A stretch of 39,200 bases of DNA, taken from a virus. Its lineage: Duplodnaviria; Heunggongvirae; Uroviricota; Caudoviricetes. Under the pieces are notes generated by a model. That model was not told where the DNA came from. It saw only the letters and a program-made list of their open reading frames with translations, and made no database searches. The stretch is from the IMG/VR virus record IMGVR_UViG_3300015360_001243, positions 113,999 through 153,198 of that record, one strand, 5' to 3'. Every line of letters begins with the position of its first letter. Within the stretch, counting starts at the first letter, position 1. Shown piece by piece: positions 2-37,539 of this stretch. Both the position numbers and the translations under genes were made by a program.

Positions 2-244
2 GCGCTAAGTATCCATGGCCCTTTCTTTAAGAAGCGTAAACAAATTGTAGAAAATACAAGAACACTGTCGCTGACTAATCAAACTAAAAAGGCTGTGTAC
101 AATGATTGGATGGTTAATGCTTTCATTCTCAAAGAGCCAGTCGACCAGGCATATTTAGTCTTTATCAAAAGGGTAGACGGAAAAAAGCTACCCATTCCAA
201 GAGGAATTATTACAGTTCCCATTTCCGATCTGAGGTTTGACTGA
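2..244 (+). CDS. 3' end of a hypothetical protein (truncated by window edge)
   Basis: Open frame from base 2 (ALSIHGPFFKKRK...VPISDLRFD) ends at TGA 242-244, which overlaps the next ATG (TGATG coupling). Not in the ORF track. Confidence 0.7.
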   Translation, partial: ALSIHGPFFKKRKQIVENTRTLSLTNQTKKAVYNDWMVNAFILKEPVDQAYLVFIKRVDGKKLPIPRGIITVPISDLRFD

Positions 245-597
245 TGTTTACTAAGGCATTTTTAAAGAAGATTAAAGAGCAGTTATTGCAAGAGAAAGAA
301 GTTCTATCAGGAAAGGCCGTCCATCGTGCGGATATAGACACTGACGGAGATGAGACGGATGAAGTCCAAGGAAACATGTTGATTGAATTAGAGAATCAAC
401 TTAATTCTAGGAACAATCAAAAGCTAAGTCAAATTAATGACGCTCTCAAAAAGTTAGCAGATAAAACTTACGGATTATGTCAGGAATGCGAAGAAGATAT
501 TCCGGAAAAAAGATTGCTTCTTAACCCATATTTTGTAATATGTGTCTCCTGCGCCGAAGAACGTGAAACAGAAACCAAACAAAGAAAGAGGTTCTGA
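244..597 (+). CDS. dksA: DksA/TraR-family C4 zinc-finger RNA polymerase regulator
   Basis: Coiled-coil tip GDETDEV (DxxD), INDALKKLADKTYGLCQECEEDIPEKRL and CVSC zinc finger; 117 aa. Confidence 0.9.
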   Translation: MFTKAFLKKIKEQLLQEKEVLSGKAVHRADIDTDGDETDEVQGNMLIELENQLNSRNNQKLSQINDALKKLADKTYGLCQECEEDIPEKRLLLNPYFVICVSCAEERETETKQRKRF

Positions 598-599
598 AA

Positions 600-1184
600 T
601 TGAATACCATTGTAACTGAAACAACTGAACATGGCGAAATGCCAGTTGATGTTTATCAAAAACTATCTAACGATCGTATTCTTTTCATCTGCCATGAAAT
701 TGATGACCATCTGGCGGCAGATATTACCGCAACTTTGTTATTGAAAGATTCGGAAGATTCAACTAGAAAGATCACTTTATTTATCAATTCACAAGGTGGA
801 GACGTTCGAAACGCTTTCATGATTTGTGATATGATGGGAATGATTGAAGCTCCTATCGAAACAGTCTGCATCGGAGCTGCCATGAACGAGGCCGCTTTGA
901 TTCTTGCCTCGGGCACACCCGGTTGCCGCTTTGCCACCAAGAACGCAATCATCGCCTCTAGTCAACTTTCCCACGATTATTTCTCGCGAGGCAATTTAAC
1001 TGACGCTAAGAAGTTACTTGATTTGAGCTTAGGTGATAACAAGCGAATGATGGAGCTTCTATCACGAACTACTGGCAAGACTATGAAGCAAGTGACTGCC
1101 GATTTTGATCGTCAGGTGTTTATGACTTCTCAGCAAGCCGCTCGTTATGGTTTAATTGATAAAGTTGTTACATTTAGTAAATAA
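600..1184 (+). CDS. clpP: ClpP-family protein lacking the catalytic triad (ClpR-like)
   Basis: TTG start; DVYQKLSNDRILF, LFINSQGG, TVCIG, YGLIDKV are ClpP motifs; triad positions read N96, S121, Q172 instead of S/H/D. Confidence 0.85.
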   Translation: MNTIVTETTEHGEMPVDVYQKLSNDRILFICHEIDDHLAADITATLLLKDSEDSTRKITLFINSQGGDVRNAFMICDMMGMIEAPIETVCIGAAMNEAALILASGTPGCRFATKNAIIASSQLSHDYFSRGNLTDAKKLLDLSLGDNKRMMELLSRTTGKTMKQVTADFDRQVFMTSQQAARYGLIDKVVTFSK

Positions 1185-1193
1185 GGTAAGACT

Positions 1194-1778
1194 ATGAAGA
1201 ATCATGATCATGAACCGATGCGCGCCCCGCTCTTAATGGGGTATGCTGACACGTATGTCAAACTGGCTAAAAACCGTATCCTATTTGTTGCTGAAGGCGT
1301 TGATGATACTATGGCGGCCCAATTGTCTGCCATGTTACTATATTTAGATAATGAAGATCATGATAATCCAATTGAAATGTATATTCATTCCAATGGTGGG
1401 CATGTAACCGGATTGGCCAATATCTATGACGTCATGCAAATGATTAAAGCGCCTATCAAAACTGTTTGTATTGGTAAGTGTTACTCAGCCGCCGCAGTCT
1501 TGCTTGCTGCCGGAACGAAGGGCATGCGCTATGCCTTTAGGAATTCCAGCGTAATGATTCATGGAATCCAGTTTGGTTTCCCTATTCCCGGTCATGATAT
1601 GACGAGTTCTAAGAGTTATTTTGATTTTGTCAATAGCAATAATGATAATATTATGAAAATGTTAGCATCTCATACCGGGCATACTTTGGAAAAGGTAAAG
1701 GCCGATTGTAAGGAAGATGTTTGGTTGACGGCTGAAGGAGCTAAAGCTTACGGTATTATTGACCATATTGTTGGTTAA
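1194..1778 (+). CDS. clpP: ATP-dependent Clp protease proteolytic subunit, intact triad
   Basis: NRILF, MYIHSNGG, TVCIGKCYSAAA (S98), VMIHG (H123), EDVWL (D175), AYGIIDHI. Confidence 0.92.
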   Translation: MKNHDHEPMRAPLLMGYADTYVKLAKNRILFVAEGVDDTMAAQLSAMLLYLDNEDHDNPIEMYIHSNGGHVTGLANIYDVMQMIKAPIKTVCIGKCYSAAAVLLAAGTKGMRYAFRNSSVMIHGIQFGFPIPGHDMTSSKSYFDFVNSNNDNIMKMLASHTGHTLEKVKADCKEDVWLTAEGAKAYGIIDHIVG

Positions 1779-1872: not shown

Positions 1873-3447
1873 ATGCTTAAAGTGGCCCGTAAACCATCTA
1901 CAGATCCGGTTCAGGAGAAGTTGAGGAACAATAAAGCCTTGTGGAACAAGGAAATTTCTGTTTTCATCAACGACCTAATCCATTTGAAAAAGACGATGAA
2001 TGGCTGGCCCTCCAAGTTCTATCAAGAGAAATCTTTTATTAAGGAACCTATTCCTGCTGATCCTGTTAGCATTTTAGGAGTTTTAACGGGCGACTTCCAA
2101 GAAATTGCTCAAAAGGGCAATGGCATCGTTCAAGAGCAATTGAATTATGCTAAGACTCGCCGTAAGAAACAACCAAAGCAACTAAATTTACCATTAGGTC
2201 AACCACAGCCTAAGCCAACGACAGAGCCAGCGGCTCCGGAGCCAGATTTGTCACAACAACTTGCCCTTCCTAGTGTAGCTTCTCAAGAATCTGATTTAGT
2301 TAAAGTAGCATCTAAATTTGAAGATAAGTACTCTTTTGAAAAAGAGGCTTCTAACGTTTTCACTCGTTTCTTTACGAAATTATTTAATCCAACTATTGGA
2401 TTTGGAGATAAAGCAGATCTACGTAGAGCCAGAATGGCTATGTTGGATTCCGCCGCCACTTCCTATAAAGGTCTTGCATATTTTCAAGCAACAGTCGTTA
2501 AATCTTCTAAAGATAGTATTCATGTCGCTCAAAAGCAACTTGATGAAGTGTGGAACAATTGGAATTTAGTATCTAAACCTTATGCCATTTTTAAAGCTAG
2601 TAAATCTATCAATGCCCCAGATAAAGGCGGTACGATTGAATCACTAATCAATAAAGATAATGATACAGAAGAAAAAATTCTTGAAAAAACTCACGAAGGA
2701 TTAGAAGATATTTCTCCTGAAGAGGCTGCTGAAGAAGTATCAGAACAAAGCAATAGACCACGTTCTCCTCAAGTAGATCCTATCTACAGGTTAGAGGTTG
2801 TTAAGAATATGGCCGCCGACTACAGGAATTACTATCCACTTTTAGCTTCCTATAATCTTGATGGTGGTGGATATCTTTACGAACTCGATGCTGCCGTTGA
2901 TAAGCTTGTTGCTACTAAAGGGAAAGTTATAACCCCAGATTTTAATATGTTCTATGAAAAGGCTGTTAGATATAGTAATCAAGAATTAGGAACTACTGCT
3001 AATAGTTTTAGGGAAATGGTTAGTCAACTAAAGGCCCGCGCTAAACAACAGTTGAAACCACAACCTGCTATCAAGCCTGTACCAGTTACTCCTGCTGTTG
3101 TTGAAGATGCTCCACCAGATACTTTAGATCCAACAAAAACTGCAATGGAAAAAACTGCTCAAAAATTCCTACAAAAGTGGTTTGGCAAAACCAGACATCA
3201 ACTCAGTATGTTTGATAAAACATCTTCTAATAGACTTAATTGTTTTAAGATGGCAGAAGAATTAAGAAAAGAAATTAATAACATAATGAATGAGTTAGAA
3301 AAGGGTCTTGATCAAGAGAAATTAGATCCGCTTATGAAGAACGCTCAAAGTAAAATGACTATTTTAAGAGGCTTGATGAGATCATTACATTTATCTCTTC
3401 AATTAGCTGAGAAATCTAAGAAGCCCCAAAAACCTAAGAAGAAGTAA
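1873..3447 (+). CDS. Hypothetical protein (524 aa), helical and Pro-rich segments
   Basis: Long ORF; ATG 1873 (MLKVARK) preferred over TTG 1786 because the upstream stretch spans the terminator hairpin. No family recognised. Confidence 0.8.
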   Translation: MLKVARKPSTDPVQEKLRNNKALWNKEISVFINDLIHLKKTMNGWPSKFYQEKSFIKEPIPADPVSILGVLTGDFQEIAQKGNGIVQEQLNYAKTRRKKQPKQLNLPLGQPQPKPTTEPAAPEPDLSQQLALPSVASQESDLVKVASKFEDKYSFEKEASNVFTRFFTKLFNPTIGFGDKADLRRARMAMLDSAATSYKGLAYFQATVVKSSKDSIHVAQKQLDEVWNNWNLVSKPYAIFKASKSINAPDKGGTIESLINKDNDTEEKILEKTHEGLEDISPEEAAEEVSEQSNRPRSPQVDPIYRLEVVKNMAADYRNYYPLLASYNLDGGGYLYELDAAVDKLVATKGKVITPDFNMFYEKAVRYSNQELGTTANSFREMVSQLKARAKQQLKPQPAIKPVPVTPAVVEDAPPDTLDPTKTAMEKTAQKFLQKWFGKTRHQLSMFDKTSSNRLNCFKMAEELRKEINNIMNELEKGLDQEKLDPLMKNAQSKMTILRGLMRSLHLSLQLAEKSKKPQKPKKK

Positions 3448-8916: not shown

Positions 8917-10248
8917 ATGACTACTAAAAATAAGAAAACTCAGGGATACCTTTCTCCTAATGAATTGGAGAAGCAGGAATCCCTGAATTCAGAGAGACTC
9001 CGTAAGTTGACGGAAGTGTCGCGAGCGCAGCCAGTCGGCGCTCCGCTAAAGGCTCGCCCTACGGCCAATTTCATTGAATTGATGAATTGGACAGTTGATA
9101 GTTTTGGACAAGAACTAAAGGACTCTAAACTATTAGAGAAGTTTGTCCATAATAGAATTATCGTGGATGGACAATTTCTTCAGTTTTGTGAAGAGGCTAA
9201 TGTAAAAGTAACTTGCCTTTATAAGGATTCGGTTATCTCCTGGAAGACTGATCATAATTTTGAAAAGTTTTTTGCACAAGGAGTATTTCGTATAGAAGCT
9301 AAGGGTGTAGAATTTCTACACGCCGCCTTGTTCCACAAGGGTAACCAACATGAAGATGAAGTAAGTTTCTTCGTGGTAGTTTCTCAAGGAAACTATGAGG
9401 CCTACCTTGAATTACGTAATAAGTTTGATACTTGGATGGCTGAGCGTGATAGAAGCAACCTTCACATTCGAGTAATTGATGGTGAGGATCTTCCTTATAC
9501 CAAGGATGCGAAGTGGGCGGACCTCTTTCTCCCAGAAGATATTAAGACGGAAGTTAAAGAACTAGTAGAAAATTTCCTAGCTTCTAAGGATTTCTATATC
9601 GAAAAGAAGATTCCATGGAAGCGTGGTGTTTTATTGTTCGGTCAACCTGGTAACGGCAAGACCTCAATTATCCGTACGATTATCTCGGAATACAACTTCA
9701 AACCTGTAACTTTTGTGCCAGGAGCCAATGCCGAAGCAATGCGCGAGGCCTTTTCCTATGCCGAAGAGCAGAGCCCGGCCCTATTATACATCGAAGATTT
9801 AGATTCTCTTATTGAGAATGGAATGGATATTTCTACCTTCCTTAATCTTCTAGATGGTATTTCAGCTAAAAATGGTTTATTGGTCATGGCTACGGCCAAT
9901 GATGTTAGAAAATTAAAGGCTAACATTATGAAAAGACCATCAAGATTTGACAGAAAATTCGAAATTCCTGTTCCAAATCAAGAAATGTCTCATATATATC
10001 TTAAAAAGTGGTTTGGAACCATCATCTCGGCAGCTAAGCTCCGAGAGCTATCCAAGCTAGCTGAGAAACATGAACTGTCATATGCTTATTTGAAAGAACT
10101 TTATATCTCTTCTATGTTTGAGGCGTTATCTAATAACCGTAAGACTCCGACTGTGAAAGATATTGATAATACTTTTGCTAGACTTATCAGAGAAAAAAAC
10201 AGCTCTGATACTGGGACTGAAATTAATACCGACAAATACTTTAAGTGA
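8917..10248 (+). CDS. Classic-clade AAA+ ATPase with uncharacterised N-terminal domain
   Basis: GVLLFGQPGNGKT Walker A, LYIEDLD Walker B, FLNLLDG, ATAN...KRPSRFD second region of homology. Confidence 0.88.
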   Translation: MTTKNKKTQGYLSPNELEKQESLNSERLRKLTEVSRAQPVGAPLKARPTANFIELMNWTVDSFGQELKDSKLLEKFVHNRIIVDGQFLQFCEEANVKVTCLYKDSVISWKTDHNFEKFFAQGVFRIEAKGVEFLHAALFHKGNQHEDEVSFFVVVSQGNYEAYLELRNKFDTWMAERDRSNLHIRVIDGEDLPYTKDAKWADLFLPEDIKTEVKELVENFLASKDFYIEKKIPWKRGVLLFGQPGNGKTSIIRTIISEYNFKPVTFVPGANAEAMREAFSYAEEQSPALLYIEDLDSLIENGMDISTFLNLLDGISAKNGLLVMATANDVRKLKANIMKRPSRFDRKFEIPVPNQEMSHIYLKKWFGTIISAAKLRELSKLAEKHELSYAYLKELYISSMFEALSNNRKTPTVKDIDNTFARLIREKNSSDTGTEINTDKYFK

Positions 10249-10272: not shown

Positions 10273-10653
10273 ATGAAAGATAATAGTTATAAGAAGCAAC
10301 CAAGGAGATATCCTTCAAAAAAGGCACCGAAGGGAGGTGAATCGCAGCCAGTCGTAGTCAACGACAAATTTGCACATATCGAACCTGTGCAGGCCCAACC
10401 CTTGGAAGTCAAAGTATACAATGGTAACTTTGATAAAGCTCTCAGAGCATTTAGGGCTCTAGTTCAAAAGGAACGTATTCTCTCTGTTTACAAAGAGAAT
10501 CAATCGTTCGAAAAACCCTCTGATAAACGCAGGAGAAAGCGTAACGAGATGAAGAGGAAACGTCATGAAATGAACAACCCTCGACCTGAGGGCCATTCTG
10601 GCGGTGGCAAGAAGAACTTCAAGCCACGCTCCAAGTCTCAGTCTCCAGAATGA
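10273..10653 (+). CDS. rpsU: Ribosomal protein bS21 with N- and C-terminal extensions
   Basis: VKVYNGNFDKALRAFRALVQKERILSVYKENQSFEKPSDKRRRK matches the bS21 pattern (VxV...ALRxF...EKPS.xRxRK). Confidence 0.85.
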   Translation: MKDNSYKKQPRRYPSKKAPKGGESQPVVVNDKFAHIEPVQAQPLEVKVYNGNFDKALRAFRALVQKERILSVYKENQSFEKPSDKRRRKRNEMKRKRHEMNNPRPEGHSGGGKKNFKPRSKSQSPE

Positions 10654-23214: not shown

Positions 23215-24462
23215 ATGCAAATTGAAGTTAAAGAAATTGAACCATGCAAGTTGTCGATTCATTATACGGCTTCCGCCCTAGAGATTATGAATAAGCGAGG
23301 AGAAATACTCACTCATTTCAAGAAGGCTCCGGTTCCAGGCTTCCGTCAAGGTAAGGCATCCTTAGATGCTATTAAGGTTCATTATCGCACTCAAATCGAA
23401 GAGTCTCTTAAGAGAGCTTTGGCAGAAGATGCGTATCACAATACCTTATTTGAAAAGAAGATTAAGCCCCACGGCGCCCCACGTTTCAATTCCCTGCTTA
23501 TGGCAGATGGCAAGTTTACGTGTGAATTCGATTTACACACTAAACCAGAGTTTGAGATGGCGTCTTATATTGACATAACACTTCCTAAGCCGCATGAGGA
23601 AGAAGATGAAGTCGCGGTCACTGAAAAAATGATGCAGGAACTTAGAGTTCGTTTTGGTGAAGTTACTCCTTTTTCTGAAACTGATTTCGTTGAGAATGGC
23701 GATAATGTCATTCTAGACTATGAGGGTTTCTTAGATGGTGAGAGGGTTGAAAATCTTTGCGCCACCGGAGAGATGCTTACCGTTGGTAATACCAATTTTA
23801 CGTATTTCGATCAGAACATTCTTGGAATGATTGTTGGCGAAACAAGAGAGTTTGATTTGCTTGTTCCAGAAGATAGTCTGCCTTCTTTAGCTGGTAAGAG
23901 CGTACACCTTGTTGTAACACTTCATACCGGATCTAAGACTGTTCCGTATCCTCTAGATGATACTTTGGCAATTCGTCTTGGAAAGAAAGATTTTTCTGAG
24001 TTAAAGGAATATGTTAAGGGTACTGCCGCTGCTACTCTTCAAAACAAAGCAAAGGGCCAGATTAACGAAGCCGTTGCTAATAAGTTAGTGGCTGAGACCG
24101 TTATTGCAGTTCCAAACTGGATGTCTCTATCTGAGGCTCAATATTTAGCACATAACGCTAAAATTGATTGGGCTACAATGGCTGACGTTGATAGAGAGAA
24201 ATATCTCAGCATGGCAGAGAAGAATGTCAAGCTAGCTTTGATTCTAGATAGAGTTAGAGAAGAACAGCCCGAAGCTCAGTTGACTGATCAAGAAGTGTTT
24301 GATGTTATCAAACAGAATCTTGCTAAAACTAATGTGAATAGACCAATGGACGAAGTCATGGAACAAATGAATAAGTCTGGATATTTGCAAATTTTGTTCT
24401 CTCGTATTCGAGATGAACATACCATGGATTACATTACTAAAAGTGTAAAATTTGTTGAATAA
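23215..24462 (+). CDS. tig: Trigger factor
   Basis: VPGFRQGKA ribosome-binding loop, FKBP-like GDNVILDYEG.LDGE...GM.VGETREF, C-terminal helical domain; 415 aa. Confidence 0.92.
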   Translation: MQIEVKEIEPCKLSIHYTASALEIMNKRGEILTHFKKAPVPGFRQGKASLDAIKVHYRTQIEESLKRALAEDAYHNTLFEKKIKPHGAPRFNSLLMADGKFTCEFDLHTKPEFEMASYIDITLPKPHEEEDEVAVTEKMMQELRVRFGEVTPFSETDFVENGDNVILDYEGFLDGERVENLCATGEMLTVGNTNFTYFDQNILGMIVGETREFDLLVPEDSLPSLAGKSVHLVVTLHTGSKTVPYPLDDTLAIRLGKKDFSELKEYVKGTAAATLQNKAKGQINEAVANKLVAETVIAVPNWMSLSEAQYLAHNAKIDWATMADVDREKYLSMAEKNVKLALILDRVREEQPEAQLTDQEVFDVIKQNLAKTNVNRPMDEVMEQMNKSGYLQILFSRIRDEHTMDYITKSVKFVE

Positions 24463-36046: not shown

Positions 36047-36601
36047 ATGACTAAAAGAGTGTTAGGGTTTGACGTGTCGAGTACCACCATTGGGTATTCT
36101 GTTCTTGATTATGATGGGACAGATTGTAAATTGTTTGATTCGGGATACCTTAAGCCACTTAAAACTGGTACTATAATTGAACGCATTGTAGATACTCGCA
36201 ATAAGATTCAATATATTATTGGCAAGTATCAGCCTAATGATATTGGAATTGAAGAGATCATTCAATTCATGCAAGGAAAGAGCACCGCTAAAACTATTAT
36301 TATGTTAACCACATTCAATAGAATGATTTGTTTATGTGCTCACGATTATCTTGGAAAGTCTCCTCAGTTATTTAGTGTTATGACTATTCGTCATGGTTTG
36401 AAGTTTGGCAAGGAACTTCCAAAAAAAGAAGATATGCCGGAGCTTGTTTCCAAACATTTAGGAATTACATTCCCCTACGAGACCAATAAAAAGGGAAAAC
36501 TAAAGGTTGAAAATTACGACAGAGCAGATGGAATCGCGGTCGGCCTTTATTATACTCTTTTGTTGATGGGTAAGATTACACGTAAGGGCAAGAAAAAATG
36601 A
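36047..36601 (+). CDS. ruvC: RuvC-like Holliday junction resolvase
   Basis: VLGFDVSSTTIGYSV, IGIEE, YDRADGIAVG acidic catalytic motifs; ATG 36047. Confidence 0.82.
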   Translation: MTKRVLGFDVSSTTIGYSVLDYDGTDCKLFDSGYLKPLKTGTIIERIVDTRNKIQYIIGKYQPNDIGIEEIIQFMQGKSTAKTIIMLTTFNRMICLCAHDYLGKSPQLFSVMTIRHGLKFGKELPKKEDMPELVSKHLGITFPYETNKKGKLKVENYDRADGIAVGLYYTLLLMGKITRKGKKK

Positions 36602-37539
36602 ATCTCAAGGAAGCTTATTCAATCTTAGAAATACCTCAAGGCACGCCTCCGGAGGATGCCAAGAAGAAGTATCGAGAACTTACTAAAAAGTACCACCCTG
36701 ATATCAACAAGGATGCTGGGGCTGAAGATAAGTTCAAAAAGATTAATGAAGCTTACCAAGTTGTCTCTAGTGGAAAGAGTAATGATCGTGCCGAACAACC
36801 TCAATGGCAACAAAACCAAAACCCTTATAATCCTTTTGGTCGCCAGGCGAAGCAAGTTAGTCATATTGAAGCAAGAACTACTGTTTCTTTCAAAGACTCA
36901 GTTCTTGGCTGCAAAAAAGAATTGAAGTTCAATCGTAAGACTAAGTGTAAAGATTGCAATGGAGAAGGCGAGATAGCTAAAAATAACGGATGTGAAAAGT
37001 GCGGTGGTAAAGGACAGGTAGTTACCCGTCAAGGATTTTCCGTTATGATTGAGACTTGTTCTAAATGTTATGGTAGAACTCAAGCAGATGCTTGTAACAC
37101 TTGTAATTCAGAAGGTACATTAGAGGCTGAGGTCACAATTACTGTTTCTATTCCGGGCGGGATTCAAAATGGAAACATTTTACGTCTTGGTGGTATGGGT
37201 AATTTCGCTGGCCACTTTGGACCGATAGAGCAACATAGCGATGTCTATTTGCATTTAAATGTAACACCGGAAAAAGATTTAGAGTTACAAGGAAATGATG
37301 TTGTAACCAAACTATCTATTTCTTTGTTGGAAGCTTTAAAGGGTTGTCATAAACCAGTAAAAACTATCTTAGGGACCAGAGATATACAGATTAAATCTAA
37401 ATCAAAGAATAAAGAAGAAGTCATTATTTCACATTTAGGAGTTAACCGACAAGGTAATCAAAGAGTTATTCTGGATATAGAGTATCCTGAGAACGTTGAT
37501 AATCTAATTAATATTCTATCTGAGGAAGGAAAAGCTTAA
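36598..37539 (+). CDS. dnaJ: DnaJ chaperone (class A architecture)
   Basis: J-domain with YHPD, AEDKFKKINEAYQVV; CKDCNGEG, CEKCGGKG, CSKC, CNTCNSEG repeats; IPGG...GDVY-like C-terminal domain. Confidence 0.93.
   Translation: MNLKEAYSILEIPQGTPPEDAKKKYRELTKKYHPDINKDAGAEDKFKKINEAYQVVSSGKSNDRAEQPQWQQNQNPYNPFGRQAKQVSHIEARTTVSFKDSVLGCKKELKFNRKTKCKDCNGEGEIAKNNGCEKCGGKGQVVTRQGFSVMIETCSKCYGRTQADACNTCNSEGTLEAEVTITVSIPGGIQNGNILRLGGMGNFAGHFGPIEQHSDVYLHLNVTPEKDLELQGNDVVTKLSISLLEALKGCHKPVKTILGTRDIQIKSKSKNKEEVIISHLGVNRQGNQRVILDIEYPENVDNLINILSEEGKA

Follow-up and report, generated by a model that had tools for sequence, protein, structure and literature searches.

It is an open question why Clp proteolytic cores should include ClpR-type subunits that lack an active site, and nearly all work on it concerns cyanobacteria and plastids. 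The question is raised anew by uncultured giant phages, a large group that carries two ClpP paralogues side by side, one without the catalytic triad (the dead gene) and one with it (the live gene). What might such a pair do for a virus? We addressed this from a 39,200-nt window (the whole stretch of DNA analysed) at the end of a 153-kb IMG/VR fragment that is ~35% complete, and from related genomes.

244..597, + strand: DksA/TraR zinc-finger gene; precedes the pair in all loci with genes listed
600..1184, + strand: dead ClpP paralogue, ClpR-like by function, TTG start, 194 aa, PF00574
1194..1778, + strand: live ClpP, S98/H123/D175 intact, ATG start, 194 aa, PF00574
1801..1830, + strand: terminator-like hairpin (1801-1820) with T tail
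1873..3447, + strand: conserved downstream gene of no known family, 524 aa, context of the pair
8917-10248: classic-clade AAA+ ATPase (PAN/Cdc48/FtsH-like), 56-79% identity across the clade, syntenic

The gene pair and the phages that carry it

The two reading frames are 9 nt apart and their products share 39% identity. Both belong to the ClpP/peptidase S14 fold, as judged from PF00574 matches and from AlphaFold models (pLDDT 83 for dead and 81 for live, with N-termini of low confidence) that match PDB ClpP chains at TM 0.80-0.86; the top Foldseek matches of the dead model were M. tuberculosis ClpP1P2 entries. The initial annotation had described a first paralogue that lost its triad but kept a canonical N-terminal loop, followed by a second with S98/H123/D175 and a non-canonical N-terminus, and alignment to S. 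aureus ClpP confirmed each of these points: N96, S121 and Q172 of the dead gene correspond to Ser98, His123 and Asp172 (the alignment is free of gaps around N96 and S121), and S98, H123 and D175 occupy the triad positions of the live gene. The dead subunit retains the N-terminal axial loop, the apical pocket and the C-terminal Lys. The live subunit has a non-canonical N-terminus, a Pro-containing handle strand and no C-terminal tail, and because its N-terminus and positions 27, 29 and 61 of its apical pocket are variable, it lacks a canonical axial loop and docking pocket. Its triad Ser and His are kept across the family (121/121 and 64/64), the third position is Asp in 52, Glu in 11 and Asn in 1 of 64 subunits, and the live subunit is predicted to be catalytically active. 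The subunits with Glu in place of the catalytic Asp include L023, L025, L029, L069 and L079; in L145 and L146 the live genes seemed to lack the His, an effect of misalignment.

Pair-bearing tailed phages have genomes of 430-490 kb, with relatives' contigs of up to 491 kb. One relative, G004, carries terminase, portal and major capsid genes, which identifies the carriers of the pair as giant tailed phages. Gene order in relatives is HU, dksA, dead clpP, live clpP, an unknown gene, DUF192, ftsK, topA, the AAA+ ATPase and S21. No close INPHARED phage was found for these genomes, a pattern scan of GTDB yielded no dead homolog, and a match to LR756504.1 was an ordinary ClpP. As clues to the host, trigger factor gave a single match (29%) and atlas taxa were mixed.

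The dead gene precedes the live gene in 64/64 distinct full-length pairs and in all loci of sufficient extent, and a reverse search found it upstream in 31/31 live-family loci. Exactly two ClpP genes were present per genome (19/19), and neither gene of the pair was found alone in forward and reverse searches and in distant loci. The intergenic gap is ≤15 nt in 61/64 pairs, with a 4-nt overlap in 17; this spacing suggests co-transcription, and the dksA/TraR gene is probably part of the same operon. The TTG start of the dead gene (600-602), a weak codon retained in 57/63 relatives, may set the subunit ratio. The terminator that the initial annotation placed after the pair stands only in part: the hairpin is present at 1801-1820, but terminator matches in the pair region are not enriched (5 versus 3.0 ± 1.8 expected by chance) and most relatives lack the hairpin, a similar one being seen by eye after the pair in ~14/61. 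A TTGTGGAG-like motif (1788-1830) precedes the hairpin here and in ~10 relatives, and the copy at the pair is the sole genomic copy followed by a strong hairpin. The window also encodes S21 with an N-terminal extension (10273-10653), trigger factor (23215-24462) and DnaJ (36598-37539), a host-like translation and proteostasis set, to which the genome adds EF-Ts-like and IF3-like genes outside the window.

Head proteases with a ClpP fold exist, and the pair could be read as a protease of prohead maturation in which the dead subunit is a non-catalytic scaffold, a role with which weak PHROG matches (E 1e-14 to 1e-23) and the failure to find a separate S78 protease in five genomes agree. We regard this as very improbable. 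The score is 164 bits to cytoplasmic ClpP versus 47 bits to head-maturation models, and NF045542 gives 47 and 62 bits against a cut-off of 120. In G004, ~50 kb separate the pair from terminase and portal, and its distance to the major capsid gene is 73 kb; the pair sits among dksA, HU, FtsK, topA and S21, and head maturation has no role for a docking pocket.

Age and ancestry of the dead gene

In all 120 homologous dead clusters (67-99% identity), Ser, His and Asp are each missing from their respective triad positions, and the triad is absent from all 51 rows of the dead-clade alignment. Where dS is measurable, dN/dS of the dead gene is ~0.05-0.11, like that of the live gene. With a profile search, the dead family grew to ~35 clusters at 50% identity. 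These form one triad-less branch (SH 98), and five distant representatives keep the same setting, preceded by dksA and followed by a triad-bearing ClpP. Against this purifying selection and family-wide loss of the triad, it is hardly credible that the dead gene is a young duplicate undergoing decay or an enzyme with different catalytic residues, although most near relatives carry Asp where Ser had been and Arg where Asp had been, as a new active site might. In distant members the old Ser position is D, N, G, K, F, H, Y or others, and this free variation indicates that no new catalytic residue was adopted. The initial annotation had named recent decay, seen as intact triads in relatives or free loss of the dead gene, as one outcome that would overturn its reading; purifying selection and fixed linkage refute decay, and the conservation that it left to be established holds, for the pair and for the loss of the triad, in 64/64 pairs, 120 triad-less clusters and 31/31 loci. 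The sequence data support the view of the dead gene as an old, selected partner rather than a product of decay. A D96-R172 salt bridge replacing the triad was considered and rejected, because the N/Q switch is essentially one event and the bridge is not kept in distant members. At the substrate groove, R70 (807-809) and E97 (888-890) of the dead subunit are invariant across the 64 pairs; a salt bridge between them may, speculatively, close the groove.

ClpR is defined by function as a ClpP homolog without the triad (PMC7966870), a definition that fits the first gene. The combination of a triad-less subunit with an active ClpP of the same size and fold resembles cyanobacterial ClpP3/ClpR and plastid and apicoplast ClpP/ClpR (PMC4673316, PMC7966870). 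The phage pair, a putative core, differs from these cores in that it is viral and comes with no cognate ClpC gene, and it differs from ClpR in that all three triad positions of its dead subunit are replaced by other residues. The ClpR label proposed initially is thus apt for function, but both insertions of Prochlorococcus and Synechococcus ClpR (10 and 9 aa; after strand 1 and in the substrate-groove loop) are missing from the dead subunit. Identity to cyanobacterial ClpR is 31-34%, versus 39% to its own live partner, and the dead subunit scores 115 against a cut-off of 263 with NF009204, which we take to be the cyanobacterial ClpR model. A maximum-likelihood tree places cyanobacterial ClpR among cellular ClpPs, apart from the phage branch (16.5 lnL units), but joining the two is not rejected by the AU test (p 0.21). 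Uniting the dead and live phage genes in one clade improves on the free tree by 4.4 units (AU p 0.58). The likelier reading, though not proven, is that the dead subunit arose independently by duplication within the phage lineage and is convergent with ClpR.

The available text of reports on jumbo phages describes single active ClpP genes, some with a phage ClpX, and the ClpXP of phage G, and this portion mentions no inactive partner (PMC7824862, PMC12484599). As far as that text goes, the pair shares with jumbo-phage ClpP its phage origin, its cytoplasmic type and a proposed action on proteins of the host or the phage. The literature searched, which covered few subscription papers, contained no account of an inactive viral partner for ClpP; to that extent, the initial view that a dead/live arrangement is undescribed in a phage is upheld.

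Docking surface, active site and subunit interfaces

Per-position entropy was compared between dead and live subunits in the 64 pairs, each pair sharing a genome. Mean core entropy is equal (1.14 bits dead, 1.14 live), and conservation is distributed differently. The apical pocket, represented by 14 positions that we take to form it on the basis of ADEP and IGF contacts, has 0.60 bits in the dead versus 1.44 in the live subunit (p 0.001-0.002 at three sequence weightings), and the N-terminal loop 1.28 versus 2.72; for the triad the order is reversed, at 1.68 dead versus 0.26 live. The difference persists for the seven same-subunit pocket positions named in PMC9823225 (p 0.02-0.03) and is not significant for the three aromatic positions named in PMC9765437 alone (p 0.19). 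When the pocket was divided post hoc into the half lying on the same subunit and the half supplied by the neighbour, the former had 0.33 bits in dead versus 1.66 in live subunits. The neighbour-supplied half, of which L49 and D52 are retained in both, is conserved in the live paralogue to at least the degree seen in the dead one (0.54 versus 1.32, p 0.02-0.04), and mixed rings therefore fit as well as separate rings. These patterns support a docking surface kept on the dead subunit and a catalytic site kept on the live one. The first pocket position of the dead subunit is Thr or Ser in 64/64 pairs; the pocket is non-canonical, with an invariant Thr at S. aureus position 115 and Glu at 89, so its ligand may be other than a host IGF loop. 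The inter-paralogue covariation signal in the 64 pairs was dominated by phylogeny.

A comparable division is known from cells. In Streptomyces, cutting falls to ClpP1, and all Clp ATPases, ClpX and ClpC among them, dock on ClpP2, whose first pocket position is Ser (PMC9765437); in Chlamydia, the axial loop is a ClpX determinant and the paralogue without it does not bind ClpX (PMC9823225). The phage live gene, with no canonical axial loop, resembles that non-binding Chlamydia paralogue. As in ClpP1P2 of Streptomyces, Mycobacterium and Chlamydia, one phage paralogue has the pocket (a small hydroxyl at position 61) and axial loop, and the other, with a non-canonical N-terminus, cuts, which in the phage is a reading of its sequence (PMC9765437, PMC9823225). 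In ClpP1P2 both subunits keep the triad. In the phage pair, the presumed docking subunit no longer has any of the three residues, the genes belong to a virus and the motor would be supplied by a different organism.

At the sensor, the dead subunit retains D170 and R171, whereas position 170 is Asp in 0/64 live subunits and Arg171 is present in 26/64. Without Asp170 in the live subunit, the usual inter-ring salt bridge is impossible in a dead-ring/live-ring stack. A charge-swapped sensor in the live subunit was rejected, being limited to near relatives, with the Arg kept in 26/64. Both handle strands deviate from the Gly-rich consensus; in the dead subunit this strand carries two inserted residues and lacks the Gly-rich motif, in contrast to host ClpP. 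This suggests interfaces unlike those of host ClpP. Complex prediction for one dead and one live chain, with alignments, gave 0.24 against a mark of 0.32, which speaks neither for nor against assembly.

These features also bear on a decoy, in which a dead oligomer, or dead subunits mixed into host ClpP, would soak up host ClpX/ClpA and protect phage proteins while the live subunit works separately. Host-like features of the dead subunit that speak for a decoy are its docking surface, its axial loop and its D170/R171 sensor, on which a homo-tetradecamer would depend; its handle strand is not host-like. Moreover, a decoy need not stay tied to live ClpP, yet neither gene occurs alone; the live subunit, with no conserved gate and pocket, would have no obvious activator; and a phage tmRNA with AA-ending tags (below) points to more degradation, not less. 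We consider a decoy unlikely.

Candidate motors and substrates

The initial annotation had noted that no ClpX/ClpA gene lies in the window, and this now extends to 22 genomes, with no ClpP-docking ATPase even in near-complete ones. ClpX and ClpS had no match in the 22 genomes, 8 of them at least 90% complete. The sole Clp-type ATPase, in G015, scored best as ClpB and had no IGF/IGL loop at the expected place; remaining AAA_2 matches were weak and partial, on frames of 370-730 aa.

L117 1210-3429, − strand: one relative's ClpB-like ATPase, 739 aa, no docking loop, apparently no middle domain
L173 1501-1852 (G000 99179-99530): tmRNA of this genome, tag ANDNAFAPLALAA

We consider it fairly probable that the pair forms a heteromeric Clp core, with a host unfoldase docked on the dead subunit and cutting left to the live subunit. 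The dead subunit would supply the apical pocket and N-terminal loop gripped by an IGF/IGL-loop unfoldase, and the live subunit the active sites. As no docking-competent Clp ATPase is phage-encoded, the motor would most likely come from the host, ClpX (or ClpA/ClpC) being the leading candidate. Each ring could hold one paralogue, as in Streptomyces ClpP1P2, or rings could be mixed, as in ClpP3/ClpR. Likely substrates would be proteins tagged by the phage tmRNA and host proteins removed during takeover. We infer co-assembly, live-subunit activity, motor and substrates in this scheme. The initial proposal that the dead copy docks and the live copy cuts gains from the old, selected dead gene, the distribution of docking surface and catalytic site and the lack of a phage docking ATPase; its layout of one ring each fares no better than mixed rings. 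Linkage and tmRNA would also be expected from vertical inheritance of core genes.

The core might instead be driven by a non-Clp activator of the phage, either the 524-aa downstream protein or the AAA+ ATPase at 8917-10248, both conserved nearby; the non-canonical yet invariant pocket residues of the dead subunit fit such a partner. The 524-aa protein has a conserved N-terminal 100 aa and central block and a conserved Pro-x-hydrophobic-Gly element that reads IGF or VGF in 13/53 copies; the copy in the window has an IGF-like tripeptide. The Phe of the element varies freely, however, and an IGF docking motif there was rejected; other genes often intervene, and the PAN/Cdc48/FtsH-like ATPase lies 7 kb off and has no IGF-type motif. 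A phage activator is, in our view, decidedly unlikely.

For a heteromeric core powered by a host unfoldase, the tmRNA offers a source of substrates. It was present in 20/22 genomes, mostly 9-15 kb before the pair, and 7/7 tags read end in AA, the C-terminal feature recognised by ClpX. tmRNA also has a separate role in ribosome rescue. SmpB was absent from the genomes searched, so it, too, must be host-supplied. Tentatively, and with considerable doubt, the parts may form a phage tag-and-destroy pathway, in which the phage tmRNA would mark proteins and an independently evolved pseudoprotease would capture the host unfoldase and feed a phage protease unable to dock alone, redirecting host ClpX from host ClpP. 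If true, the pair would illustrate how giant phages can commandeer an ATP-driven motor of the host and steer proteolysis. With its apparently separate origin, and with docking and cutting assigned to different subunits, a two-gene viral system would also offer a minimal, easily expressed model for the role of dead ClpR-type subunits. Just before the tmRNA (L173 612-1074; also L172 and L177) lie four tRNA-Thr genes with all four anticodons, including the rare AGT.
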